64,000 nucleotides of DNA from Candidatus Iainarchaeum sp. (GCA_030688545.1 JAUYHT010000008.1:84608-148607); one strand, 5' to 3'; shown: positions 4,606 to 53,936, counted from the stretch's first letter. The notes: a model not told the origin generated them from the letters alone. Numbers and translations: made by a program.

Positions 4606-5025
4606 ATGACATTCTACACCAAGGGAGCTAATGCCGAAAGGGAATTATTGATGCTCCTTTATGCCGCGGGAATGGCCGTTTGTCGGGCCGCGGGATCGGG
4701 AAAAGGGAAGAATAACATCCCCACTCCCGATGCTATCGCTTTGCGGGGAGGGAAGATCTATGCATTCGAATGCAAGGCCTGGAAGAAAGGGAGCCTGCAC
4801 ATCTCCCACCAGCAGATGAATGATTTGGAGGCATGGTGCGGAATGGCGGGAGCGGAGTTGGTGATCGCGTGGAAGATCCCCCGGAAAGGGTGGTGGTTTT
4901 TCACCAAAAAGGATTTGCGGCCACTGGAGAAGAGCTATGGAATAACGCAAGGAGAAGCGTTTGCCAAGGGGAAGCGAATCGCGCACTTTACGCATGTTCC
5001 ACTAGTGGTGGGGGAACTGACGTAG
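4606..5025 (+). CDS. hjc: Holliday junction resolvase Hjc (PD-(D/E)xK nuclease)
   Basis: N-terminal KGANAERELLMLLYAAG...RAAGSG and catalytic PDAIALRGGKIYAFECKAWK (D...ExK) are typical of archaeal Hjc; about 139 aa. Confidence 0.85.
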   Translation: MTFYTKGANAERELLMLLYAAGMAVCRAAGSGKGKNNIPTPDAIALRGGKIYAFECKAWKKGSLHISHQQMNDLEAWCGMAGAELVIAWKIPRKGWWFFTKKDLRPLEKSYGITQGEAFAKGKRIAHFTHVPLVVGELT

Positions 5026-9635: not shown

Positions 9636-10712
9636 ATGGGTTTCCTGCAATGGCTGGATGAGGTTATTTCCCATATCCGACGGAAGCAAGCGGACCACGA
9701 GACCATAGGGAAAACCATTCGGGAACTCCCTCAAACGGTGGACCTGTCAGGGGAGGGGGCCCTCCGGAGACCCATGACCAAAGCGGGGGTGCAGGGGAAA
9801 GTAGGGGGAGTGGATTCAGGGTTTGTGTCCCAGTCATTCTATGCCATGGACCTGATGCTCGTGCGGGCAATGGGGGTGTGCTTCACCTATGAACAAGGGA
9901 AGATGGTGCGCGCGGAATATTGGCCGGAACACCCGGGGATGCCCCAGCCCATTGTGGATACGAAAGGATTGGAGCCGGATGAATTCAGGCGGTTTGTTTC
10001 ACTGACGCGAGTAAGGGCCGAAATGGACCAGGCGAGGGAACTCATCGCGAGGTGCCGACCAGATGTCATGTTTCTGGATGGGAGTTTGATCCTGCACCCC
10101 GCAGATAAGCCTGGGAATGAGAGCAAGCTGAAGGAGGAATATGAGATAGCCATCCGGAGTGGGGTGGCCTTGTATTCGGCGGCGGAGAAAGCCAATTGTT
10201 TGTTGATTGGGGCAGTGGAAGACTCGCGATCGACGAGGTTGAGTGAGATGCTGCGGAAGCAGTACCCTCACCACCCAATATTGGGAAAACAATTGGGAAA
10301 AGAACTCCAGGACGCGCCCCTCATGGATAAGGTGTTGCACGCCGGAGAAAGAAGCATCGCTTTCCGTGTGGCAGAGGATATCATGAAACACCCCATCCTG
10401 ATGGACTATCCATCCGAATGGGGGGCGCGGATGCACGCGAGCTACATCAAACCGTCCCCATGGGATTATCCCCTGCGGATTGAGTTCTTCAGCGGGAAAG
10501 AGGGGTTGACCGCGGCCGCGGACGCGGCAGCATCCCAGGCGTTTGCGCAAAGCAGCCTGCACAAGGAATACGCGTATCCCTCGGTGCTCATCGAAGCGGA
10601 CATGCGGGCGGGACTCAAGCCGGAGGAAGTGGATTTGGTGAGCGACAAAATCTTTTCTAAGATTGGACGGCACACCATTCACTTGAGGCGAAGGGACCGG
10701 CGGCCGTTCTGA
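9636..10712 (+). CDS. nurA: NurA 5'-3' nuclease
   Basis: GVDSGF...ANCLLIGAVEDSRS pattern of the NurA domain, and position immediately upstream of herA (operon-like). The start may lie further downstream. Confidence 0.75.
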   Translation: MGFLQWLDEVISHIRRKQADHETIGKTIRELPQTVDLSGEGALRRPMTKAGVQGKVGGVDSGFVSQSFYAMDLMLVRAMGVCFTYEQGKMVRAEYWPEHPGMPQPIVDTKGLEPDEFRRFVSLTRVRAEMDQARELIARCRPDVMFLDGSLILHPADKPGNESKLKEEYEIAIRSGVALYSAAEKANCLLIGAVEDSRSTRLSEMLRKQYPHHPILGKQLGKELQDAPLMDKVLHAGERSIAFRVAEDIMKHPILMDYPSEWGARMHASYIKPSPWDYPLRIEFFSGKEGLTAAADAAASQAFAQSSLHKEYAYPSVLIEADMRAGLKPEEVDLVSDKIFSKIGRHTIHLRRRDRRPF

Positions 10713-42577: not shown

Positions 42578-43972
42578 TCACAGGAAAAATTCCTTGCCTT
42601 TTAAGAATGCGCTCAGGGCACGGGCGAATTCATCATCTTTGCGCGCGAGCCCAGTCAAATGCGTTTCCTGCAGAATCTTAAAATCACTCATCGCTGAGGC
42701 CAATTCGTCTTTTTCATTAGCAATCATCTTACCTTTCCATATCTCTTCCAGTGCGCCCTCGGCCTTAACAAAACGCCTTGTTTCTTCCACCACCAACCGC
42801 CCCTCCTCGATGCGGGGCCCCGACAAAGGATGAGAGTGGGCTTTAAGGAACGCCTCCGCATGCCCTGCTTCCACCACTTTCGGTCCAATCCTGGTTTTGG
42901 ATTTCTGCAGGATAGGATTGGCGACATCGAAGAAGAGGTAACAATCCTCCCCCCCACTCGTATGGGTGAAAGTGCGTCGCACGATGAAATCATTCTGCTG
43001 CAATCCGGTGGAGGCACGCCGGGACAATCGAGCGAGCTGCCCCCACACCACATCCTCGACGATTCCTTTTGGATAAGAAAAATGCAGGCCGATGAGCTCT
43101 TCCGTCTGGAACCTTTTTTTCAATTCCTTTTCTGGCAAAGCCTTTTCCTGGTGACCGAAAAAGAATGTCATTCGGGGGCGGTTGAGAAAGCTCCGGGCCG
43201 CCATGATAAGACGGGCGAACTGGTTATAGGACAAGGCCGCGGCCACATTACGAATTTTATCGGTGGGATCCACGACCACCAAGAACGCGCCTGGAAAAAG
43301 CGATAGGGCCTCGGACTCGGAACCGTATTCGTTTTCCCTATCAATCACCGTGCCCTCTTTCCAAAAAGCCATGGCGCGCAGCGCTTTCTCGAATGTCCCA
43401 TATTCCAGAATAAGCAATTCCACCAGATACCCTGGCACCCCCTGGTACCGGGTGTCCGCTCCATACACTTGGATGCCCTTGAAGAATTGTTTGAGCAGAC
43501 GAACCTGATTCCGTTGATAGATTTTCAATCGACGTTTGACATAGGAGGTATGAAACGGGGTGCGATCCACGGCAGAAATCTTCTCAGTAGCTTTTCCCAC
43601 CTTAAACACCGGGACAATTTCCACATCGAACCCATCGATATTTCCCCGGACGTAGGGGTGTTCGCTGTAGGCTTCCTCATGGGGATTTTTACCAAAAATG
43701 AAATGGCCCAGTTTCAATCCGTGCTTCTCGAAGGATTCCCGTTTGAGGGAAGGGGAATAATACACGAAAATATCCAAATCCTTGTCCCCCGCGAGATGCG
43801 TGTCGCGCGCGATGGAACCGGCGAGCACGGCACCTTTATGGGGGCCGCGGGTCTTCCGAATGGTGCGCATGATCCTCCGGCACAATGCCTGTTCCGCGGT
43901 CCGTTCTTTCTTGGAAGGAACGATATAGGTCAACACTTTCCGTGAGAGCGCTGCTAAGGAAACCATATGCAC
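42578..43972 (-). CDS. cca: tRNA CCA-adding enzyme, archaeal class I nucleotidyltransferase
   Basis: GSIARDTHLAGDKDLDIFV (GS...D.D nucleotidyltransferase motif) and about 460-aa archaeal CCA architecture. Confidence 0.85.
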   Translation of the reverse strand: MHMVSLAALSRKVLTYIVPSKKERTAEQALCRRIMRTIRKTRGPHKGAVLAGSIARDTHLAGDKDLDIFVYYSPSLKRESFEKHGLKLGHFIFGKNPHEEAYSEHPYVRGNIDGFDVEIVPVFKVGKATEKISAVDRTPFHTSYVKRRLKIYQRNQVRLLKQFFKGIQVYGADTRYQGVPGYLVELLILEYGTFEKALRAMAFWKEGTVIDRENEYGSESEALSLFPGAFLVVVDPTDKIRNVAAALSYNQFARLIMAARSFLNRPRMTFFFGHQEKALPEKELKKRFQTEELIGLHFSYPKGIVEDVVWGQLARLSRRASTGLQQNDFIVRRTFTHTSGGEDCYLFFDVANPILQKSKTRIGPKVVEAGHAEAFLKAHSHPLSGPRIEEGRLVVEETRRFVKAEGALEEIWKGKMIANEKDELASAMSDFKILQETHLTGLARKDDEFARALSAFLKGKEFFL

Positions 43973-45616
43973 GGGAAAACCCCCTGCTTAATATATTCCA
44001 CCGTGGTTCTCCCCTCCATGGACAAACGCATCACGTCCATCCGGGGCGAATTATTGGAAGACACTCCCCACGCCCGCATCTACGAGGGGTTTCCCTACAA
44101 CGAGTACGAGGCCAAGAAGCCTGTTTTCACCCCCCCTGAACAGGAATTCGCTGACGCATTGGCATCTGCCCTGAACGCGCGCACCCGCAGTGAAGAATGG
44201 TCGCACCGACTCCCAACAAACGTCGCCAAATCATTCGTCACGCCCTTCAAGATGCGCATGATTACCCTCGTTGAAAGTAATGAGCTCGTGGACAAACTCC
44301 CCTCGGAAGAGGATTGGGAGACCCTCCACGCGGTGTTGACGGGATTGCTCCGCGAGCACGGGGATATCGTGAAAGACATGGATGCTTTCGCTACCTATGT
44401 ATTGGATTATGGGGTGGGGTATGCGCAGATAGGGTCGCTCCTCCGCGACCCCCACTTGGAGGAAGTAATGGTGAATGGGCAGAAACGAAATGTCTTCGTC
44501 TACCACCATCGCCATGGTACTTGCAAGACTAATATCTTCGTGGAAGCGCACGACCCCCACATCCTGCGCATCATCACCAAGGCATCCAAATATGCCGGGA
44601 GAAAATTTCATGAGCACGAACCCCTATTAGACGCCCGCCTCCCCGATGGATCACGCCTCAATGCGACATTCGAAACCGTCACCCCATTTGGTCATTCCAT
44701 CACCATCCGCAAGTTCACCCGCAACATGCTGTCGGTAACCCAACTCATCGCCAACAATACCCTCACCTTTGAGACAGCCGCCTTCGTGTGGGTGATGACC
44801 GAAGGGATGGGAGTGAAACCCATGAATATGATCATCACCGGGGGCTCAGGATGCGGAAAAACGACCTTCCTCAACTGTGTGGGGAGCTTCATCCCATTTG
44901 GGGATAGGGTCATCACCATTGAAGACACGGCCGAACTCAAATTCTTCGATCGGGAGAATTGGATTTCCATGGAAGCCCAACCCCACACCCGAACCAATCC
45001 CGGGACGGACATGAATGATTTGCTCACCAATGCCATGCGGATGCGGCCCGATAGATTAATCGTGGGGGAAGTGCGGGGAAAGGAAGCCGAAACCCTGTTC
45101 ATAGCTATGGACACCGGTCACCAGGGGTGCATGGGAACCCTCCACTCCAATTCCGCGCGCGAAATGCTCGTGCGCTTGACAAATGATCCCATGAACGTGC
45201 CCCAATCCCTATTGCCGGTGTTGGATATGGTGGTGGTGCTCCAGAAAGTGAATGATGTGAAACACGGCCTCCAACGCCGAGTATCTCAAATTGCGGAAGT
45301 GTCCCACATGAACCAGAGCATCCTCCTCTCCAACCTCTTCGAACGCCACCCGGAAACCGATCTGCTGATGCGCACCGACACCCCCTCCCACCTGATGCAG
45401 GTGCTATCCGATGCTGCTGGAAAGAACAAGCGGAGCATCCTCCAAGAAATTCTTGTTCGCCAGCGCGTGCTGGAATGGATGATCCGCCACCGCATATTCG
45501 ACCCGGCGGACGTGGAAAAGGTGGTGCAGCAATACTACTTCGACCCGGCCGGGATCGTGGACCAAGTGACAAAGGAACTGGAAGACATCAACCCCCCTCC
45601 CCCGCGGAAGAAATGA
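43967..45616 (+). CDS. second type II/IV secretion-system ATPase (FlaI/TadA-like)
   Basis: Walker A GGSGCGKTTFLN, conserved GEVRGKEAETLFIAMDTGHQGCMGTLHSNSA. The real start may be at 44018 (MDKRITS). Confidence 0.8.
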   Translation: MHGKTPCLIYSTVVLPSMDKRITSIRGELLEDTPHARIYEGFPYNEYEAKKPVFTPPEQEFADALASALNARTRSEEWSHRLPTNVAKSFVTPFKMRMITLVESNELVDKLPSEEDWETLHAVLTGLLREHGDIVKDMDAFATYVLDYGVGYAQIGSLLRDPHLEEVMVNGQKRNVFVYHHRHGTCKTNIFVEAHDPHILRIITKASKYAGRKFHEHEPLLDARLPDGSRLNATFETVTPFGHSITIRKFTRNMLSVTQLIANNTLTFETAAFVWVMTEGMGVKPMNMIITGGSGCGKTTFLNCVGSFIPFGDRVITIEDTAELKFFDRENWISMEAQPHTRTNPGTDMNDLLTNAMRMRPDRLIVGEVRGKEAETLFIAMDTGHQGCMGTLHSNSAREMLVRLTNDPMNVPQSLLPVLDMVVVLQKVNDVKHGLQRRVSQIAEVSHMNQSILLSNLFERHPETDLLMRTDTPSHLMQVLSDAAGKNKRSILQEILVRQRVLEWMIRHRIFDPADVEKVVQQYYFDPAGIVDQVTKELEDINPPPPRKK

Positions 45617-45670: not shown

Positions 45671-46474
45671 ATGGGAAGCATGCGTTTATTGGGAATAGGA
45701 TTGGCCTTTTTGCTCGTTCTCTCATTCGCCTCGGCCGATGCCCTCCTCGTGGACCCGGTGGTGGAGAAAGGGAAACCCGGCGCCACGTTTGACTTGGGAA
45801 AGATCGAACCCGGCCAGGGGATTGAGGTCATCCTCTCCAAGGACACCGGGTATGGGGCGTCCGCATTCTGGACCCAATTTGAATGGACCTCTCTTTCGGA
45901 TGACAGCCTTCGGGCGCAGGATTCCCAGATTGGCCAAGAAAGCCTTGTCGGCCGAATACAAGCCACCGGATTCACTGAGGAAGGAACGTACCACGCCACC
46001 CTCGTCCTGAAAGGCGACCCCACCCTATTACAAGAGGAAACCTACCACGTGATATTTACTGTTCAACCCACCCTCGTGAAAGGTAGCTTGGCCGTGAGGG
46101 GGGTAGAAGGAAGGGTCAACCAGGAAATGACCTTTGATGTCCTCCTGGTGAATGATTCCTCTTCCCCCGTGCGCATCCGCGTACAACCCGAGCTACCGGG
46201 AACATGGAGCTCGCCGCGCGAGATCCACTTGGCTCCCCGCTCATTCCAGAATGTGGAGGTTGGCATTACCCCCCGATTCGCGGGAGAGAAGACTTTCCCC
46301 CTGCACCTGGTGAATACTGAAACCAATCACATTTATTCCACGCTCCAGGGCAACCTCACGGCCCGACCCGAACTCAAAGACCGGTACGCGGCGGGGTTAT
46401 ACGGATTTCCATTTTTTACCATCTCATTAGTGGCGAACACCCTGGCGAATGCCTTTTTTAGCCTTCTCCTGTGA
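45671..46474 (+). CDS. secreted protein with signal peptide and C-terminal hydrophobic anchor
   Basis: Signal-peptide-like N-terminus; beta-rich; C-terminal FPFFTISLVANTLANAFFSLLL. Confidence 0.5.
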   Translation: MGSMRLLGIGLAFLLVLSFASADALLVDPVVEKGKPGATFDLGKIEPGQGIEVILSKDTGYGASAFWTQFEWTSLSDDSLRAQDSQIGQESLVGRIQATGFTEEGTYHATLVLKGDPTLLQEETYHVIFTVQPTLVKGSLAVRGVEGRVNQEMTFDVLLVNDSSSPVRIRVQPELPGTWSSPREIHLAPRSFQNVEVGITPRFAGEKTFPLHLVNTETNHIYSTLQGNLTARPELKDRYAAGLYGFPFFTISLVANTLANAFFSLLL

Positions 46475-48087
46475 TGCATCATTTCATGTCGCCCAATGAT
46501 AATCCCATGAAGCCTAATGAACGCCTGGCCCACCGGCTCTACACCGAGATTCAGGCCAATACGATTACGGACATTCCCCGCTTCAACACGCGCAAACGCG
46601 AGCTCGCAGAAGGTTTGGGAATCGCCCACTTACCCCCCAACCCGGATTTATTGCCCCTCATGCCAGGGGCATTGAGGAAGGAACAGCGCGCGCTTTTCGC
46701 CATCAAACCTGTTCGCAACATTTCAGGGGTTGCCGTCCTCGCGGCCATGGTGAAACCCCACCTCTGCCCGCATGGGACGTGCATCTACTGCCCTAAAGGA
46801 TTACACCACCCCGCACCCCCCGCTTACACGGGGGATGAACCCGCGGCCCAACGCGGATACCGGAATGATTTTGACCCCTATCGCCAAGTCAATGGCCGCA
46901 TTCAGCAGCTACAAGCGGTGGGCCGGGACACTGACAAGTGCGAGCTCATCATCATGGGAGGCACCTTCCTCTCGATGCCCCTGGATTACCAATATTCCTT
47001 CATGCAAGGATGCTTAGAAGGGCTCGCCGGGAAACGATTTCCATCCATGGGGGAGACCATAGCGGCGTGCGAAACGAGCGCGAACCGAGTCATTGGCATC
47101 ACCATGGAAACCCGCCCGGACGTGGCCAAAAAGGAAGACATCGCCCGCATGCTTTCATGGGGGAGCACCCGCGTCGAATTGGGGGTACAAACCATTTACG
47201 ATGACGTACTTGAAAAACTGAACCGCCAACACACGGTGAAGCAGACTATTGATGCCACGCGCCGATTGAAAGAAAGCAGTTTGAAGGTAGGCTATCATAT
47301 GATGGCCAAACTTCCCCATTCCGAATTGAAACGGGACATGGCCGCGCATTTAAACATATTTTCAAACCCAGATTTCAAGCCAGACATGGTGAAACTCTAC
47401 CCCGTCGCCGTGGTGGCCAACACCGCGCTCTATGGGATGTGGAAACGCGGCGAATATGAGGAGATGACTCAAGAGGAAGCGGTGGCATTCTACGCGGCAC
47501 TGAAACCCCGCATTCCGGAATGGGTGCGAGTGATGCGGGTGCAACGCGATATCCCCACTCCCAATATTTCCGCCGGGGTGAAGAAAACCAACCTCCGCCA
47601 GCTGGTGGAAAAACGAATGAAAGAAGAGGGAACACGCTGCCGCTGTATCCGGTGCCGCGAAATGGGATTCAAAAAGGTCAAGGAAGGGGTTTCCCCTCAA
47701 AAAATAGAATTGGTGACCCGCTCGTATGAAGCCTCCGGAGGAATGGAGTATTTTATTTCCGCCGAGGACGTGGAACAGGACATCCTGGTGGGGTTTATCC
47801 GCCTCCGGATCCCCCACCTCCCATTGTTCTCCGAACTGGCCGACTCCGGATTCGTGCGCGAAGTGCATGTATATGGCCAATCTGTTCCCCTGGGGGAGCA
47901 AAATGTCACAAGCGGCCAGCACAAAGGATGGGGCCAACGCCTGCTCCAGGAAGCCGAGCGCGTGACTAAAGAGAAGCACGGTTTATCCCACGTCAACGTC
48001 ATCGCCGGAATTGGAGTGAGGGAATACTACAAGAACTTGGGGTATGTGCAGAACGGGGCGTGGGTGCGGAAAAATCTGAAAGGATGA
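46471..48087 (+). CDS. elp3: Elp3 homologue (radical-SAM plus GNAT; tRNA carboxymethyluridine synthase)
   Basis: Radical SAM CxxxCxxC (CPHGTCIYCP), Elp3-specific conserved blocks, C-terminal GNAT (GWGQRLLQEAE). Confidence 0.85.
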   Translation: MMHHFMSPNDNPMKPNERLAHRLYTEIQANTITDIPRFNTRKRELAEGLGIAHLPPNPDLLPLMPGALRKEQRALFAIKPVRNISGVAVLAAMVKPHLCPHGTCIYCPKGLHHPAPPAYTGDEPAAQRGYRNDFDPYRQVNGRIQQLQAVGRDTDKCELIIMGGTFLSMPLDYQYSFMQGCLEGLAGKRFPSMGETIAACETSANRVIGITMETRPDVAKKEDIARMLSWGSTRVELGVQTIYDDVLEKLNRQHTVKQTIDATRRLKESSLKVGYHMMAKLPHSELKRDMAAHLNIFSNPDFKPDMVKLYPVAVVANTALYGMWKRGEYEEMTQEEAVAFYAALKPRIPEWVRVMRVQRDIPTPNISAGVKKTNLRQLVEKRMKEEGTRCRCIRCREMGFKKVKEGVSPQKIELVTRSYEASGGMEYFISAEDVEQDILVGFIRLRIPHLPLFSELADSGFVREVHVYGQSVPLGEQNVTSGQHKGWGQRLLQEAERVTKEKHGLSHVNVIAGIGVREYYKNLGYVQNGAWVRKNLKG

Positions 48088-48088
48088 A

Positions 48089-48778
48089 TCATTTCCTCAA
48101 TAATCTTTCCAATTTTTTCTTTTGTGTTTGCAGCAATCTTAGTTTTTCCCGCAGTAATTCGGGTGGCTCATTCCGGACCATCAAGTTGAATTCCTCCGCG
48201 AGATACAATTGGTTGGTATAAATATTGATATCAATAATGGTCTTCATCAAATTCTGAGAAATGTAATACTTTTTCAATCTGGAATAATATAATTTTTGAT
48301 TCGACTTACGAGCTATTGCCATCTGTCTAGAAATCACTTCTAATTCACTTTTCGCTTGTGCGGAATCATAGAGGTTATTCTCAATTTCGGTTGCCTTATG
48401 GATAGCGATAGATGGGTTTCCTCGGAAGGCATATGTCCATTTCAAATCCTTCATCTGTTGCATTTGAACGCCCATTTGCAATACCATATTATCCTGGAGC
48501 GATCCCGGATGCCTTTTCAACCAGGAAATAATCTTTGATATCCGCCGAATACGCAAGTCCGCATATTCCGACACCGCATTGGAGAAAGTAATTACGTTAA
48601 GGAGATTTAACACTATCCCATCAATGGAACGGAAATTTTGTAATGGCACATGACTCATTTTGCCTAATGTTTGCTTTAACCCCCGTATGTCCTCAGATAA
48701 AGGTTTAAGCTGTTTCCTTAGCTCGATCCACTTGTCCCGGGGATTTCGATCTCTCCTCCTATTGGGCTTTTTAGGCAT
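48089..48778 (-). CDS. basic hypothetical protein
   Basis: Coherent ORF; AT-richer than surroundings. Confidence 0.45.
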   Translation of the reverse strand: MPKKPNRRRDRNPRDKWIELRKQLKPLSEDIRGLKQTLGKMSHVPLQNFRSIDGIVLNLLNVITFSNAVSEYADLRIRRISKIISWLKRHPGSLQDNMVLQMGVQMQQMKDLKWTYAFRGNPSIAIHKATEIENNLYDSAQAKSELEVISRQMAIARKSNQKLYYSRLKKYYISQNLMKTIIDINIYTNQLYLAEEFNLMVRNEPPELLREKLRLLQTQKKKLERLLRK

Positions 48779-48821
48779 TAATGGGTTGGGAGATTGGAAT
48801 TTTTAACCTAATTGGTAAAAT

Positions 48822-49784
48822 TCAATTACCCATTTCCCGCTGGAAACGTCTAAGTGCCTTTTTGGAATATTCCAAGTCTTTCCGAATAATATCCCGCGTG
48901 CGTCCTTTGAACCGCAGTCCGGTCAGACGGAGGATTTTCAGCTCATATGTGAGGCGTTGAATATCACGGGAGTAATAATTGATTCCAGAGGTAAAAAATC
49001 GGTCGATCAATTGGGGGGAAGGGGATAGGTTTTTCTGTAATCTGTCTTGATGCGCGTCCATAGCTTCTACGAATTTCCTTTTCCAATCAATACCTTCAAG
49101 TGAATATCCTTCAAAAGCTTTAATCTCCGGTCCGATATTGAGCAATTGCTCAACTTTTCTCTTCTCTTTTCGCCATTCACTTTTCCAGGTCTCCAGATTC
49201 CGGATATATCGCTCTCGATATTTTGATGTCGCCCCGGTGAGGGAGGATGCGGATGTCAACCAATCCAATTCAATATCCAGCCGATTAATCTCAGCCTCAA
49301 TATATTTCACGTAAGCCGAATGAAACCCCAAAAGAACGGGAACGGCTCCCTTCAATTCACTAATCGTTTGGATCCTGATTTTTCCCATTCTATTGCGAGT
49401 CGTCCGGTATTCTCGGCGTTTTTCTTTTAGATCCGCTTCTCCCTCCGCCACTTTCCTTTGGTGCAATCGCCGAAGCGCCGCTAAACGATAGGTAATCGAA
49501 CGATACCGCCGATTCCTTCCAAATAGATTGACCATCAACTGGGAAGATCCTCGGTAATGAGAGGATAATGCTTGTTTCACCATATCGGGGTATACGCGCT
49601 CAACTGCCGATGTCCCGAAATAGATTGGTCTACGCGGCTCGGTCACCATATCCGGACGCATGACTATTCCGCGACGCCACACATTTGCACGCTTGGCTTC
49701 CCGCTCTAAAAAAGCCAAATCCCGCTTGGCTGTCTTCTTGGGATACGATCGTCTTTCTCTAGACCCCATGTTCCCCAATACCAT
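48822..49784 (-). CDS. basic/Arg-rich hypothetical protein
   Basis: Coherent ORF. Confidence 0.45.
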   Translation of the reverse strand: MVLGNMGSRERRSYPKKTAKRDLAFLEREAKRANVWRRGIVMRPDMVTEPRRPIYFGTSAVERVYPDMVKQALSSHYRGSSQLMVNLFGRNRRYRSITYRLAALRRLHQRKVAEGEADLKEKRREYRTTRNRMGKIRIQTISELKGAVPVLLGFHSAYVKYIEAEINRLDIELDWLTSASSLTGATSKYRERYIRNLETWKSEWRKEKRKVEQLLNIGPEIKAFEGYSLEGIDWKRKFVEAMDAHQDRLQKNLSPSPQLIDRFFTSGINYYSRDIQRLTYELKILRLTGLRFKGRTRDIIRKDLEYSKKALRRFQREMGN

Positions 49785-49800
49785 CGCGCGACTTTAAAGG

Positions 49801-50187
49801 GTGTCACTCCCACCAATATACATGATCCTCATCGCCACCATTGGTTCGGGAAAAGGGACGTGGGGACATGTCCAGCGGGTGATGAAAGAGGGGGATTGGG
49901 AGAAAACGCTGCTCATCGGGAACGATTGGAGTAAGGAGCATTTCTCTTTCCCGGAGGGGATGGATGTAGAATGGATCGTGCTCCATGCGCAGGAACCATT
50001 TGAGCAGATCAAGGAGCAGATCGCCGCCCGGTTGGATAAAAAATCGTATGGGGTGTGCCTGTCCTCGGGCAGCGGGAAGGAACATTCAGCCCTCCTCGCA
50101 GCGCTGCTGGAAAAAAGGGTGAAATGGTCCATCGCCTACCTTTCAAAAAGCCAGCTGGCCATCTACGGAGGGGAGAAGGATGCTTGA
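49801..50187 (+). CDS. hypothetical protein
   Basis: Overlaps the next gene by 8 nt (operon). Alternative start at MILIATIGSGKG. Confidence 0.45.
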   Translation: MSLPPIYMILIATIGSGKGTWGHVQRVMKEGDWEKTLLIGNDWSKEHFSFPEGMDVEWIVLHAQEPFEQIKEQIAARLDKKSYGVCLSSGSGKEHSALLAALLEKRVKWSIAYLSKSQLAIYGGEKDA

Positions 50188-50548
50188 ATGGGTGCTCGCC
50201 CTCCTGGTTCTCGTGCTCGCGGGAATCAGTTTCTTCCTCTACAAACGCGTGGAGGCGCTCAGCGCCTTTGCCAATGACCTGCAATTCGCCAAACAGAGTC
50301 AATCCGTGAAATATGGGAAAATGAGCGAGCACTGGATTCCTCTGTCAGAAAAATTTCCTTACGAGAAAGAACGCTTCCGCTTCCTCGGAAACCCCATCGA
50401 CGGCCTCGCATTCCTGGATGACAAAATCGTATTCTGCGAATTCAAAGCCAACACCAGCCGATTATCTTCCGTGCAGGACAATATCAAACGATTGGTGCAG
50501 GAGAAAAAGGTGGAGTGGTTGGAAATCCAGACGAAGGAAGGAGATTAG
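50180..50548 (+). CDS. membrane-anchored Hjc-like PD-(D/E)xK nuclease-fold protein
   Basis: N-terminal TM helix; IDGLAFLDDKIVFCEFKANTSRLSSVQDNIKRLVQE parallels the Hjc catalytic block PDAIALRGGKIYAFECKAWKKGSLHISHQQMNDLEAW in this window. Confidence 0.5.
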   Translation: MLEWVLALLVLVLAGISFFLYKRVEALSAFANDLQFAKQSQSVKYGKMSEHWIPLSEKFPYEKERFRFLGNPIDGLAFLDDKIVFCEFKANTSRLSSVQDNIKRLVQEKKVEWLEIQTKEGD

Positions 50549-50834
50549 CCTCTCCTACGTATCCTTCGAAGAAGTCCGGCCCCCCATTTTCGCAATCCAT
50601 ATTCTTTTCTTTCCTTTTCGATATGTGAATGCACCAAAATAGAAGGGTCTTGAGGGATGCTTTCCCCTTTTTCTCTCAACCTAAACCTTTTCATCAATTC
50701 GTATGCTTCCCCCCTCTCCAAGGGTGTCACCTTCAATTTTACATCGGGCCTCAGGTCTCCCTTTTTTTTTGGTTTTTTTTCATCCGGCATGGGAAAGGAA
50801 AAGGATATTTCCTATTTAACGATTTGTTTTTTCG

Positions 50835-51887
50835 CTATGAGTGCTCCACCCGGTACCGCAAAATAGCCGCGATGCCCCCTAAACCATCCAATTGCTTGCC
50901 CGGGTCGGAGTCCGAATCCAGGATGGGGGAAGGGATTCCCATGCGCTTGGCGAGCGCGAGAATAATGTCTACTCGTTCCCGATTGGAATCGTATAGGTTT
51001 TGGGAAACCAACACCCGGGAGGCCGCCCCCACCTCCACGGCGTATTCCACCTGCTTGAATCCATAGGTGGCCAACCCATCCTCTTTCCCCAAGTGGCGCA
51101 TCACCTCATCCACCGCCTGGGCGTGCCGGGACATCGCGTATTCTCCCACGGCCTTGGCGATGGCCTCCGAGGCAATGGCTTCCTTCACCCCCGACATCCC
51201 CGTGTCATGAGTGGGAATAGAGAGGAATTGTTTGTCGCCCTTAGGAAAGCGCTCTTGAAGGTACGCGAGCAAGGATTGTCGGGTGAAACCGGGCCCGGCA
51301 ATGACCATTTGACCAACAGGGGAATGCTGCAGGATGTCCGCGATGGATGAAAAATAGTCATCCGGTTTGGACTGGGAAGCATATTGCTTTCCCGATCGGT
51401 AGGCTTTCACCCGCGCGGACTCTTTCACTCCTACCCCCGAAACCTCCACGATCACGGCTTCCTCGTCATCCAACACGACACAAACCAATTTGGCTTTCTT
51501 GCTATCCGCTTCTATCTGACGTAGGCGCTCGATTTCATGAGCGGGCAAACGTGTTTTTTTCACCGCGATGGGTTGACGCACCCCGAATACCAGGGAATGC
51601 ATGGCATGCAATTCAACAAATTCTCCGGGTGAGCCGGATTCGATCGAGCCGGTGACACGGAGCTGGGACGAATGAGCATCCACCTCCACCTTATTGGTTT
51701 TGAGGGAGAGGAACATCTTCAACCGGAAGGGTTTCTGCCCCACCTCCTTGGGCTTGATGAGGCGATCCGTCTCCCCACTCACTAAATCTCCCGGATGAAT
51801 GAGCTGGGATACCAAACGTAATTCGTCCGAGGAATGGCACTCGACCTTGAAAGAAAACTCATCTGGCCGCAATGAAAGGATACGCAT
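50835..51887 (-). CDS. pelA: Pelota (Dom34) mRNA-surveillance / ribosome-rescue factor
   Basis: N-terminal MRILSLRPDEF...DELRLVSQLIHPGDLV and eRF1-like central and C-terminal domains. The track ORF extends upstream to 52025. Confidence 0.8.
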   Translation of the reverse strand: MRILSLRPDEFSFKVECHSSDELRLVSQLIHPGDLVSGETDRLIKPKEVGQKPFRLKMFLSLKTNKVEVDAHSSQLRVTGSIESGSPGEFVELHAMHSLVFGVRQPIAVKKTRLPAHEIERLRQIEADSKKAKLVCVVLDDEEAVIVEVSGVGVKESARVKAYRSGKQYASQSKPDDYFSSIADILQHSPVGQMVIAGPGFTRQSLLAYLQERFPKGDKQFLSIPTHDTGMSGVKEAIASEAIAKAVGEYAMSRHAQAVDEVMRHLGKEDGLATYGFKQVEYAVEVGAASRVLVSQNLYDSNRERVDIILALAKRMGIPSPILDSDSDPGKQLDGLGGIAAILRYRVEHS

Positions 51888-51947
51888 ACATAGGTCGAAA
51901 GGGCGCAGGGGGCTTAAAAAACGAGGGGAGGGTAGAATAAATACGAT

Positions 51948-52145
51948 ATGCGTCCCCTCACCAAGATAGGATGGTTCACCCTGGCAGTAGGATGGGTTAT
52001 CCTGGGGATCGTTTTCATCGCGCACAATGGGATGAATGACCCTATGGCCGCCCTCTTATGGATGTTAGGTCACCTCGTCTGGGGAGGCATTATCCTGGGA
52101 GGGTTGCTGTTCATCCTCATGGCGGTCCTCTTCCTTTCCGCTTAA
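51948..52145 (+). CDS. small 2-TM membrane protein
   Basis: 65 aa, two hydrophobic helices; immediately upstream of ABCE1. Confidence 0.4.
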   Translation: MRPLTKIGWFTLAVGWVILGIVFIAHNGMNDPMAALLWMLGHLVWGGIILGGLLFILMAVLFLSA

Positions 52146-52163
52146 CCATAAGGAAAACCCATC

Positions 52164-53936
52164 ATGAGCCTCAAACGAATCGCCGTCATCGATCACGCGA
52201 AGTGCTTTCCCGACAAGTGCAACTGGCTCTGCCAGCGCAAATGCCCGGTGAACCGAGTGGGAAAGGACTGCATTACTCAAAATACCTCATTGTTCAAGGC
52301 CCAGATATCGGAAGAATTATGCACGGGCTGCGGCATCTGCCCAAAAGTATGCCCCTTCGGGGCCATCACCATCATCAACCTGGACGTGGATTTTGGAAAC
52401 CCCATCCACTCCTATGGGGTTAATTTCTTCCGGTTGCATAAACTCCCCATCCCCCGCGCCCAAAACGTGGTGGGCATCGTGGGACGGAATGGAACGGGCA
52501 AAACCACCGCCCTCCGCATCCTATCAGGACAGATGCCTCCCAACCTGGGAGACTATGATCAAAAACCCACATATGGGGGAGCAGTGGAGGCCTTCCGCGG
52601 AAAAGAATTGCAGCATGTCTTCTCCCGCCTGCGGGATGGGACGCATACCCTTTCCATTAAACCCCAGGACGTAGAAAGGATCCCGCGACATTTCCAAGGG
52701 AGCGTGCGGGAATTGTTACACACCATTTCCCCAGAAAAAACGGATGCCACGGTGCACGCCCTTGGGTTAGAAAATATCCTCGACCGGGGTATTGAACAAT
52801 TATCGGGAGGGGAACTCCAGAAAGTGGCCCTCGCCGTGTGCGGAATGAAGGACGCCACCACCTATTACATCGACGAACCATCCTCCTTCCTGGATATCCG
52901 GGAACGCTTACGCATCGCCGGCTATATCCGGGGCCTCCTTGGAAATGATAGGGGGGTTATGGTCATCGAGCACGACCTAATCCTATTGGATTACCTCTCG
53001 GATTCGATTCACCTCATGTTCGGTGAACCCGCTGTATTCGGGGTCGTTTCGAGCGTCCATCCCACGCGGGAGGGTATCAATATGTATCTCGATGGTTATG
53101 CTAAAGACGAAAATTTCAGGTTCCGAAACCATTCCATCACCTTCATGGAACGCGGAGCGCGCGACTTTACCAAAACAACCCCTCTCATCCACTGGCCATC
53201 CTTCAAAGTCAAGCAGGGCCCGTTCACATTGGACGCGGAACCAGGGCACCTGGGAAAGAACGAAGTGATTGGGATATTAGGACCGAATGGAATAGGAAAA
53301 ACCACCTTCATCAAGGCCCTCGCGGGACTGCTCACTCCGGAAGAAGGAGTGTTGCCCCTGCACATGCCGGTGGCCTATAAACCCCAGTATGTGGAACCCA
53401 TTCCTGGAATGACGGTGGAATCCTATTTACGAACCCGCTTAACGGGAGCGGCCCGGGAGGCCCGTCATTTACTCGTGGAACCCCTCCACCTTCCCTCATT
53501 GTATGAGAAGGAGATGCAAACCCTCTCCGGAGGAGAATTGCAGCGCGTGGCCATCGCCGGGGCATTGGGAAGCGATGCCCCGCTCATTCTATTGGATGAA
53601 CCCAGCGCCAACCTTGATGTGGAACAGCGCCTCCAAGCCGCCCACGCCATCCGGAGCATCGTGGATGCGTTTGATAAAACCGCGTTGGTGGTGGACCATG
53701 ATCTCCTCTTCATGGATTTCGTATCGGATAGATTACTCCTATTCGATGGCGAACCCTCCACCCATGGAAACGTTCGCGGACCCATGGGGATGGAGGAAGG
53801 GATGAATGGACTATTATCCCAATTAGGTATCACTCTGCGCCGCGACCAGCACTCCAAACGCCCCCGCATCAACAAACCGGGAAGCGTTAAGGATACCGAG
53901 CAAAAAAAGACGGGGCAATATTACTACACCAAATGA
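52164..53936 (+). CDS. abcE1: ABCE1 / RNase L inhibitor (ribosome-recycling ABC ATPase with N-terminal 4Fe-4S domain)
   Basis: Two ferredoxin-like Cys clusters (CFPDKCNWLCQRKCP, CTGCGICPKVCP) followed by twin ABC cassettes (GRNGTGKTT / GPNGIGKTT, LSGGELQ signatures). Confidence 0.9.
   Translation: MSLKRIAVIDHAKCFPDKCNWLCQRKCPVNRVGKDCITQNTSLFKAQISEELCTGCGICPKVCPFGAITIINLDVDFGNPIHSYGVNFFRLHKLPIPRAQNVVGIVGRNGTGKTTALRILSGQMPPNLGDYDQKPTYGGAVEAFRGKELQHVFSRLRDGTHTLSIKPQDVERIPRHFQGSVRELLHTISPEKTDATVHALGLENILDRGIEQLSGGELQKVALAVCGMKDATTYYIDEPSSFLDIRERLRIAGYIRGLLGNDRGVMVIEHDLILLDYLSDSIHLMFGEPAVFGVVSSVHPTREGINMYLDGYAKDENFRFRNHSITFMERGARDFTKTTPLIHWPSFKVKQGPFTLDAEPGHLGKNEVIGILGPNGIGKTTFIKALAGLLTPEEGVLPLHMPVAYKPQYVEPIPGMTVESYLRTRLTGAAREARHLLVEPLHLPSLYEKEMQTLSGGELQRVAIAGALGSDAPLILLDEPSANLDVEQRLQAAHAIRSIVDAFDKTALVVDHDLLFMDFVSDRLLLFDGEPSTHGNVRGPMGMEEGMNGLLSQLGITLRRDQHSKRPRINKPGSVKDTEQKKTGQYYYTK

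Follow-up and report, generated by a model that had tools for sequence, protein, structure and literature searches.

A predicted stand-alone CARF protein encoded directly upstream of a membrane-anchored PD-(D/E)xK nuclease in an Iainarchaeota genome

Two short genes that overlap on the plus strand of a 64-kb stretch of archaeal DNA (referred to below as the window) raise the question of what a small membrane nuclease and the protein encoded directly before it are, and whether the two act together. The initial annotation of this locus described an operon of an unknown protein and a membrane-anchored, Hjc-like PD-(D/E)xK nuclease, in which the first protein was regarded as a dedicated partner of the second. 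Both open reading frames were found at the places given, and their 8-nt overlap (50180-50187) was confirmed. Because homologues of the upstream protein begin at the residue that corresponds to ATG 49822 in the homologue alignment, the start of the upstream gene was moved there from the mechanically called GTG at 49801, and its true product is most likely a protein of 121 aa. The TTTAAA sequence that precedes this ATG would, if it serves as a TATA box, yield a leaderless transcript. The proposed co-transcription of the two genes also finds support, as the overlap together with a GGAGG motif 8 nt before the ATG of the nuclease gene makes a common transcript probable, and this motif may allow the nuclease to be translated by internal initiation on a bicistronic mRNA. 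The coordinates of these features and of their neighbours are collected in Table 1.

Table 1. Features of the locus and of the surrounding window, in order of position.
Feature	Position	Strand	Details
Bona fide Hjc of the window	4606..5025		Pfam PF01870, 82.4 bits
Elp3	46471-48087		Window neighbour, upstream side
Gene with no detectable domain	48089-48778	-	Low GC (0.39-0.43 for the pair with the next gene)
Gene with no detectable domain	48822-49784	-	Low GC (0.39-0.43 for the pair with the preceding gene)
TTTAAA, candidate archaeal TATA box	49793..49798	+	Read from sequence; ~26 nt 5' of ATG 49822
Upstream ORF, mechanical call	49801..50187	+	128 aa, GTG start
CARF-fold protein gene, likely true extent	49822..50187	+	121 aa, ATG start, from homologue starts
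GKGT, predicted CARF motif 1 (G10-K11-G12-T13)	49849..49860	+	Loop after strand 1, N-terminus of helix 1
Predicted CARF motif 2 (S82-G83-S84-G85-K86-E87-H88)	50065..50085	+	Directly after strand 4; [ST]xxx[KR]
GGAGG, Shine-Dalgarno-like	50167..50171	+	8 nt before the nuclease ATG, within the upstream gene
Nuclease gene, PF10107 / COG4741	50180..50548	+	122 aa, ATG start
Predicted N-terminal transmembrane anchor, residues ~2-21	50183..50242	+	From hydropathy and flanking charge; K22-R23 next
Catalytic block	50327..50446	+	E50 50327-50329, D74 50399-50401, E87 50438-50440, K89 50444-50446
Pelota	50835-52025		Window neighbour, downstream side
ABCE1	52164-53936		Window neighbour, after Pelota

The downstream protein is almost certainly a minimal PD-(D/E)xK nuclease of the PF10107/COG4741 family, its catalytic domain being joined through a predicted helical stalk to a predicted single-pass anchor in the membrane. 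It matches the Pfam model PF10107 (Endonuc_Holl) with 52.6 bits (E 6e-14; cutoff 23.8), and all 86 homologues that were aligned match this model too. A homologue search with the nuclease returned 299 proteins, and each of the 120 listed carries PF10107 and is 111-135 aa long. One NCBI protein, named 'MAG: Holliday junction resolvase-like protein [Candidatus Diapherotrites archaeon]', is 100% identical, and among the matches listed the named relatives belong to Diapherotrites/Iainarchaeum, with a single entry from Micrarchaeota; the window is therefore taken to be part of an Iainarchaeota (DPANN) genome. COG4741 was described by Feder and Bujnicki in 2005 as a mostly archaeal family with an N-terminal transmembrane helix, a predicted cytosolic orientation and a minimal core, built from four strands and two helices, that carries the motif E-(V/I)D-E(V/I)K (PMC1189080), and it was listed as PF10107 by Steczkiewicz et al. 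(2012). The window protein shares with this family the transmembrane helix and the minimal core with its E...D...ExK residues, and nothing essential differs, the 122 aa of the protein comparing with a profile of 159 positions. The nuclease is thus not new but an annotated member of a family predicted computationally in 2005, although a literature search for PF10107/COG4741 found no experimental study of the family.

The metal-binding site of the nuclease (E50, D74, E87 and K89) is intact as read from the alignment. D74, E87 and K89 are invariant in the 86 sequences, E50 is present in 85 of them, and the isoleucine that precedes D74 is kept in all 86. The loss of D...ExK in homologues, which the initial annotation had named as the finding that would count against it, was therefore seen in none of them. 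Since these residues are conserved to this degree and the PF10107 threshold is passed, the catalytic motif is more than a chance resemblance. The last part of the motif reads E-F-K in the window protein against E-(V/I)-K in the family, and an almost invariant KxSQSVKYG block leads into the helix that bears E50. At the N-terminus, the best hydrophobic segment of 19 residues has a mean Kyte-Doolittle hydropathy of 2.49. In the AF2 model of the nuclease (pLDDT 83.6), residues 2-58 form one long helix that is followed by three short strands and a helix, and the fourth core strand was not called by DSSP. Lysine and arginine are more frequent in the C-terminal than in the N-terminal flank of the transmembrane helix in 84 of the 86 members, the N-terminal side being essentially without them. 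Because of this enrichment and of K22-R23, the protein is predicted to lie N-out/C-in with its nuclease domain facing the cytoplasm, and this orientation agrees with the one predicted for COG4741 in 2005 (PMC1189080). The description of the protein as a PD-(D/E)xK nuclease with an N-terminal membrane anchor was thus borne out by the family match, the hydropathy and the conserved catalytic residues.

The likeness to Hjc was also part of the initial annotation, which saw an almost residue-for-residue parallel between the nuclease and the catalytic block of the bona fide Hjc encoded elsewhere in the window. The two blocks are real and have identical motif spacing (G7-x3-E11...D42-x12-E55-x-K57 in Hjc and G46-x3-E50...D74-x12-E87-x-K89 in the nuclease). 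However, no significant pairwise or profile similarity accompanies them. BLASTP of the nuclease against the window Hjc gave no alignment at E<=100, and hhalign of the nuclease family profile against the single Hjc sequence aligned only 18 catalytic columns (E 0.037, probability 1.4%), exactly those on which the parallel had been based. None of the 86 family members matched PF01870 at E<=1, and VRR_NUC was matched by 6. By these searches the nuclease is not recognised as an Hjc, and the term Hjc-like holds for it only at the level of the PD-(D/E)xK superfamily, the resemblance as judged from sequence being limited to the catalytic motif. Hjc is also a soluble protein, whereas the window nuclease is predicted to be anchored in the membrane by its long helix. 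The best Foldseek match of the nuclease model was VRR_NUC, which was not significant, and the nearest solved folds are VRR-NUC and FAN1. Comparison of the family with the PADLOC defence models gave weak matches to Can1 (19 of 86 members), to CARF4-PDDEXK (8 of 86) and to Cas4-like nucleases, and the window nuclease itself matches CARF4-PDDEXK at E 0.006. The nearest folds and profiles are accordingly VRR-NUC, Can1 and Cas4-like nucleases rather than Hjc.

The upstream protein was called unknown in the initial annotation, and this is accurate in so far as it lacks a Pfam or NCBIfam model. However, it can be identified as a stand-alone CARF fold, and it is very probably a bare CARF domain. The AF2 model (pLDDT 93.1, pTM 0.86) has the topology b1-a1-b2-a2-b3-a3-b4-a4 followed by a b5-b6 hairpin, with strands at residues 2-6, 28-33, 49-53, 76-79, 102-108 and 111-115 and helix 4 at residues 85-98, and the protein ends right after the hairpin. 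Its best structural match is Can2, the other matches being further Can2 structures, TtCsm6, Card1, Can1, Sso1393, Cam1, Sso2081 and Cad1, and the model resembles solved CARF domains more than it does other Rossmann folds. The CARF definition of Makarova et al. includes a serine or threonine at the end of strand 1 and an [ST]xxx[RK] motif after strand 4 (PMC4012209), and the model and motifs of the upstream protein agree with all three of the criteria set out there. In the model the two motifs sit at the b1-a1 and b4-a4 junctions. The GKGT residues of the first are invariant in 93 of 93 sequences, where S9 is nearly so, and S82, G83, G85, K86, E87 and H88 are invariant in the second, which the E-H pair extends. 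The GKGT loop was also considered as a Walker A loop, and this was rejected. Profile searches of the nuclease and CARF families against PDB sequences gave chance matches only (prefoldin, SRP54, RNase III).

In sequence searches the upstream protein itself has no match in Pfam, NCBIfam or PADLOC, including the CARF models of the latter (this 2023 library has models named for numbered CARF classes). When 93 members of the family were compared with PADLOC, a comparison independent of the structure, the matches were weak and overwhelmingly to CARF models, the most frequent being CARF_m11 (27 of 93, best E 5.7e-4), with further weak matches to CARF1, CARF3, CARF4, CARF8, Csm6 and Csx1; in Pfam/NCBIfam, HFX_2341_N was weakly matched by 5 of the 93 (E ~0.09). 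The homologues are 'hypothetical proteins' of 115-125 aa. A profile search of 1.84 billion representative proteins retrieved only 331 clusters at 50% identity, nearly all of them stand-alone proteins in this same size range. Where a homologue bears an organism name, it is mostly that of a member of Woesearchaeota or Nanoarchaeota; Iainarchaeota genomes have the family as well. The proteins thus form a DPANN-restricted CARF family that neither Pfam nor NCBIfam models and that matches no PADLOC CARF model significantly.

In Crn1 ring nucleases and in Card1, serine and lysine residues equivalent to those of the two motifs line the cA4 pocket, and the lysine is essential in the ring nucleases (PMC9638899). 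The model suggests that the GKGT and SGxGKEH loops likewise form the canonical CARF ligand pocket, so that the protein most likely binds a nucleotide-derived small molecule, presumably as a homodimer. The Crn1 proteins (Sso2081/Sis0455 and Sso1393/Sis0811) share with it the stand-alone occurrence of the CARF fold, the Ser/Thr that follows strand 1 and the lysine that follows strand 4. By analogy with them the window protein could itself be an enzyme, namely a minimal ring nuclease or phosphodiesterase acting on a cyclic or 2',3'-cyclic-phosphate nucleotide, with the invariant K86-E87-H88 and T13 as putative catalytic residues. The invariance of E87-H88 beside K86 is in favor of such an activity, but it is distinctly unlikely on the remaining evidence. 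The small Crn1 group is marked by an R105-K106 pair after strand 4, of which Arg105 is essential, and by a C-terminal lid insertion (PMC9638899); in the window protein the equivalent of Arg105 is the invariant Gly85 that precedes K86, and the lid is absent. Additionally, Card1 has the same serine and lysine residues, yet does not cleave cA4 (PMC9638899), and no source of cyclic oligoadenylate (cOA) was found in the window. The protein further differs from Crn1 in being smaller (121 aa), in having no HTH domain and in not being associated with CRISPR.

A source of the known CARF ligands was sought in the surroundings of the gene pair. The 64-kb window contains no CRISPR array, and neither a cOA synthase nor a cas gene was found in it, so that no known source of a CARF ligand is at hand there. 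No Cas, Cas10 or CD-NTase protein was seen among the 25 PADLOC families listed, out of 41, for the 56 other proteins of the window, the matches of which include HerA and SMC/Rad50-like ATPases. Also, no type III CRISPR-Cas system or other cOA synthase was found near the gene pair in the window, and the neighbours that recur in 160 loci are Elp3, Pelota, Orc1/Cdc6 and wHTH genes.

The position of the nuclease gene is strongly conserved. A scan of one genome per GTDB species gave 141 confirmed nuclease loci, of which 80 were kept, nearly all under the label Iainarchaeum or unclassified archaeon. Of these 80, 73 have an Elp3 homologue upstream of the nuclease and 75 have Pelota downstream of it in the opposite orientation, and the window keeps the order Elp3, nuclease, Pelota. 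The GC content of the locus (0.52) is that of its surroundings. This synteny, the native GC and the lack of CRISPR/Cas neighbours indicate that Iainarchaeota inherit the nuclease vertically, as a core gene with a fixed place between Elp3 and Pelota, and that it is not a mobile defence module. The initial annotation had suggested that the pair could be a restriction or defence module, or that the nuclease serves in DNA uptake or degradation at the membrane, and action on DNA outside the cell was considered together with these roles. A role in uptake would suit DPANN archaea, which rely on nucleotides from outside, and more distant PF10107 relatives that share the transmembrane-plus-nuclease layout are encoded by Flavobacterium phages and by 8 IMG/VR viral contigs. 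The 2005 study also speculated that COG4741 proteins guard against foreign DNA or scavenge nucleotides (PMC1189080). However, the nuclease domain is predicted to be cytoplasmic, the gene is syntenic in ~90% of Iainarchaeota loci, no methyltransferase, cas or other defence gene is adjacent, neither protein has a strong PADLOC match, and the CARF family was not found in the phage genomes and IMG/VR contigs searched. The genomic context thus does not support these roles, and they are very improbable.

Whether the CARF gene belongs with the nuclease was judged from their co-occurrence. Of the 80 nuclease loci, 38 have the CARF gene as the immediate upstream neighbour in the same orientation (39 of 81 when the window is included). 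Among CARF-centred metagenome loci long enough to contain the nuclease, it comes next after the CARF gene in 18 of 74. All 57 pairs keep one order and one strand, CARF first and nuclease second, with a median gap of ~23 nt and an overlap in seven, even though the nucleases of these pairs are only ~45-65% identical. On the other hand, the CARF gene is absent within 4 kb in 42 of the 80 nuclease loci, and the nuclease is absent from 56 of the 74 CARF-centred loci. None of the 15 loci that best match the window nuclease has a CARF gene within 4 kb. In the nuclease tree the window alone, out of the 16 taxa of its clade, keeps one, and the adjacency changed at least 8 times on this tree. The pairing is therefore facultative in both directions, and of the dedicated partnership that had been proposed the linkage and its constant order stand while the exclusiveness does not.

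One explanation of these data is that the two genes are neighbours by synteny only, with independent housekeeping functions in a compact DPANN genome. On its own, the nuclease would then process DNA (or RNA) at the inner face of the membrane, and the CARF protein would sense or process an unrelated metabolite. Besides the many loci in which one gene occurs without the other and the repeated gain or loss of adjacency, this explanation is favored by a control with loci that lack the CARF gene, in which the nuclease follows Elp3 just as closely (29 of 39 gaps <=141 nt). Since these gaps are equally short, tight spacing is a property of the compact genome and not of the partnership, and it was rejected as operon evidence specific to the pair. 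The synteny of Elp3, nuclease and Pelota is itself conserved without an obvious functional link. Also, in other DPANN lineages the CARF gene adjoins Orc1/Cdc6, LarA and other genes; Orc1/Cdc6 is its commonest downstream neighbour in the CARF-centred set and lies immediately downstream on the same strand in 15 loci. However, synteny alone does not readily account for the identical order and strand in 57 of 57 pairs with such divergent nucleases, for the overlap of start and stop codons in several loci, or for the resemblance of the two proteins to the two halves of Can1/Can2. In one lineage (L109), moreover, a different and unrelated PD-(D/E)xK nuclease (PDDEXK_1, PF12705) begins 2 nt after the CARF gene, although a search for this arrangement found no instance beyond L109. 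Neighbourhood by synteny only is the main rival to functional coupling, a serious possibility if a doubtful one.

A third gene is associated with the pair in relatives. In 35 loci the CARF gene is immediately preceded, on its own strand, by a gene of ~101 aa whose alignment has a winged-helix pattern; 18 of 32 members match HTH_45, and others match HxlR, TrmB or MarR. In the genome set this wHTH gene is present in 23 of 39 CARF-positive loci versus 2 of 42 CARF-negative loci, and many Iainarchaeota carry a wHTH-CARF-nuclease cassette between Elp3 and Pelota. The window has no wHTH gene, and two minus-strand genes (48089-48778 and 48822-49784) are found there instead. Unrelated wHTH genes flank the CARF gene elsewhere (HTH_24 in L082/L085 and ArsR in the L124 group). 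The arrangement in relatives recalls Csa3, a transcription factor in which a CARF domain is fused to a wHTH domain; unlike in Csa3, the two are separate genes here, in the order wHTH then CARF.

The reading proposed in this study, which is plausible but tentative, is that a ligand-sensing CARF protein regulates a membrane nuclease outside CRISPR. The two genes would be co-transcribed, and a CARF dimer would bind a nucleotide-derived ligand and act as a sensor that gates the nuclease, either directly at the protein level or at the level of expression by way of the small wHTH protein, which is absent here. The pair would then be a split, membrane-tethered analogue of Can1, Can2 and Card1 outside a CRISPR locus. 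In those proteins (CARF4 family) of type III CRISPR systems, which cA4 activates, the CARF domain switches on the PD-(D/E)xK nuclease fused to it, whereas here the two domains are two polypeptides, the nuclease is predicted to be membrane-anchored, the association is facultative, and no cOA source is found nearby in the window. A CARF domain outside CRISPR has a precedent in RtcR. Ligand binding, the identity of the ligand, the physical or regulatory coupling and the substrate of the nuclease are points that we infer.

Functional coupling of the two proteins, taken by itself, is held with somewhat more reserve. It is suggested by analogy, as the CARF protein finds its best structural match in Can2 and the nuclease family weakly matches Can1 and CARF4 nuclease models. 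The constant strand and order in 57 loci, the 8-nt overlap and the GGAGG motif at this locus, and the wHTH gene that tracks CARF-positive loci are consistent with it, as is the single case of L109. The facultative association and the lack of a cOA synthase in the window argue against it. Proteins that join the two domains were looked for and not found, either in the 120 of 299 nuclease matches that were listed or in the top 150 of the 331 CARF clusters. Additionally, the matches of the families to CARF and Can1 profiles are weak (E ~1e-3), and the CARF protein of the window matches none.

The nuclease alone is ordinary, since it is already annotated and its family was predicted twenty years ago. 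The interest of the locus lies in its partner, a DPANN-restricted and near-minimal stand-alone CARF family that is found in housekeeping neighbourhoods and not in CRISPR loci. If the CARF protein controls the nuclease, the pair would be a split, membrane-tethered counterpart of Can2/Card1 without an obvious cOA source. Such coupling would point to a new ligand, would extend CARF signalling beyond defence, and would give a first functional handle on PF10107, a widespread family of membrane nucleases that is also present in phages. Being tiny, both proteins should express easily, which puts assays of binding, cleavage and activation within direct reach. A broader and unlikely, though not far-fetched, idea is that DPANN archaea carry a CRISPR-independent housekeeping CARF pathway in which a bare CARF protein of 115-125 aa senses an endogenous nucleotide-derived signal. 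In such a pathway the CARF and wHTH proteins may control DNA transactions, by way of the membrane nuclease in Iainarchaeota and possibly of Orc1/Cdc6 in Woesearchaeota and Nanoarchaeota. If this is true, antiviral defence would not be the only use of CARF sensing, and the proteins described here would possibly represent a minimal or ancestral form of it.

In 35 of the related loci, a gene for a winged-helix (wHTH) protein of ~101 aa adjoins the CARF gene on its 5' side and the same strand. When the genome set was divided by the presence of the CARF gene, the wHTH gene was found in 23 of the 39 CARF-positive loci but in only 2 of the 42 CARF-negative loci. Because the wHTH gene tracks the CARF-positive loci, many Iainarchaeota have a wHTH-CARF-nuclease cassette. 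This arrangement recalls a split Csa3, a protein in which the CARF domain is fused to a wHTH domain.

The wHTH gene is absent from the window, and two genes for basic proteins are inserted there between the Elp3 and CARF genes. At 0.39-0.43, the GC content of the two falls clearly below that of the DNA nearby (~0.52-0.55), and neither protein yielded a domain with Pfam or PADLOC. Homologues of the 320-aa basic protein occupy the same slot in loci L003, L005-L008 and L012. Downstream of the nuclease gene, a basic ORF of 81 aa on the opposite strand runs into the nuclease stop codon; it had no Pfam match, none of the 80 related loci contains a homologue, and the ORF may be spurious.

CARF-fold genes also have other downstream neighbours. 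In metagenome loci from other DPANN lineages, Orc1/Cdc6 lies directly 3' of the CARF-fold gene in 15 cases, a number that rises to 19 if pairs up to two genes apart are counted. In locus L109, a single case among 160 loci, the CARF-fold gene is followed by a 321-aa nuclease of PF12705 (PDDEXK_1, RecB/Cas4-like), a second PD-(D/E)xK neighbour that is unrelated to the PF10107 nuclease.

Elsewhere in the window, a secretion-family ATPase gene ~4 kb upstream of the CARF-nuclease locus probably encodes a pilus or archaellum assembly ATPase. Among the 56 ORFs outside 46471-53936, one protein gave strong matches to HerA models (best E 3.6e-61), and the SMC/Rad50-like models LmuB and PtuA were also matched. 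Going by ORF sizes alone, our guess is that a HerA/Rad50-type repair cluster lies at ~9.6-16.8 kb.

Positions of the genes and relatives discussed in the window, related loci and phage genomes
Feature	Location	Strand	Remark
wHTH gene (examples)	L017:3177-3485; also L021, L031, L048 and others	same as CARF gene	
Two basic-protein genes	window 48089-48778 and 48822-49784	both (-)	
81-aa basic ORF	window 50545-50790	(-)	4-nt overlap with nuclease gene
CARF-fold gene + Orc1/Cdc6	L107:1268-2741; also L151, L154, L156, L158 and others	same strand	
CARF-fold gene, then PF12705 nuclease	L109:3579-4897		2-nt gap
Type II/IV secretion-family ATPase	window 43967-45616	(+)	PF00437 T2SSE, E 3e-36
Phage PF10107 relatives	H1-H4, ~9654-9905		Flavobacterium phages vB_FspM_immuto
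Viral PF10107 relatives	L161-L168		IMG/VR contigs

PF10107 relatives with 30-44% identity were found in phage genomes and viral contigs, and these keep the nuclease's architecture of an N-terminal TM helix, a coiled coil and an E-D-ExK site. The PF10107 family therefore reaches beyond archaeal chromosomes.
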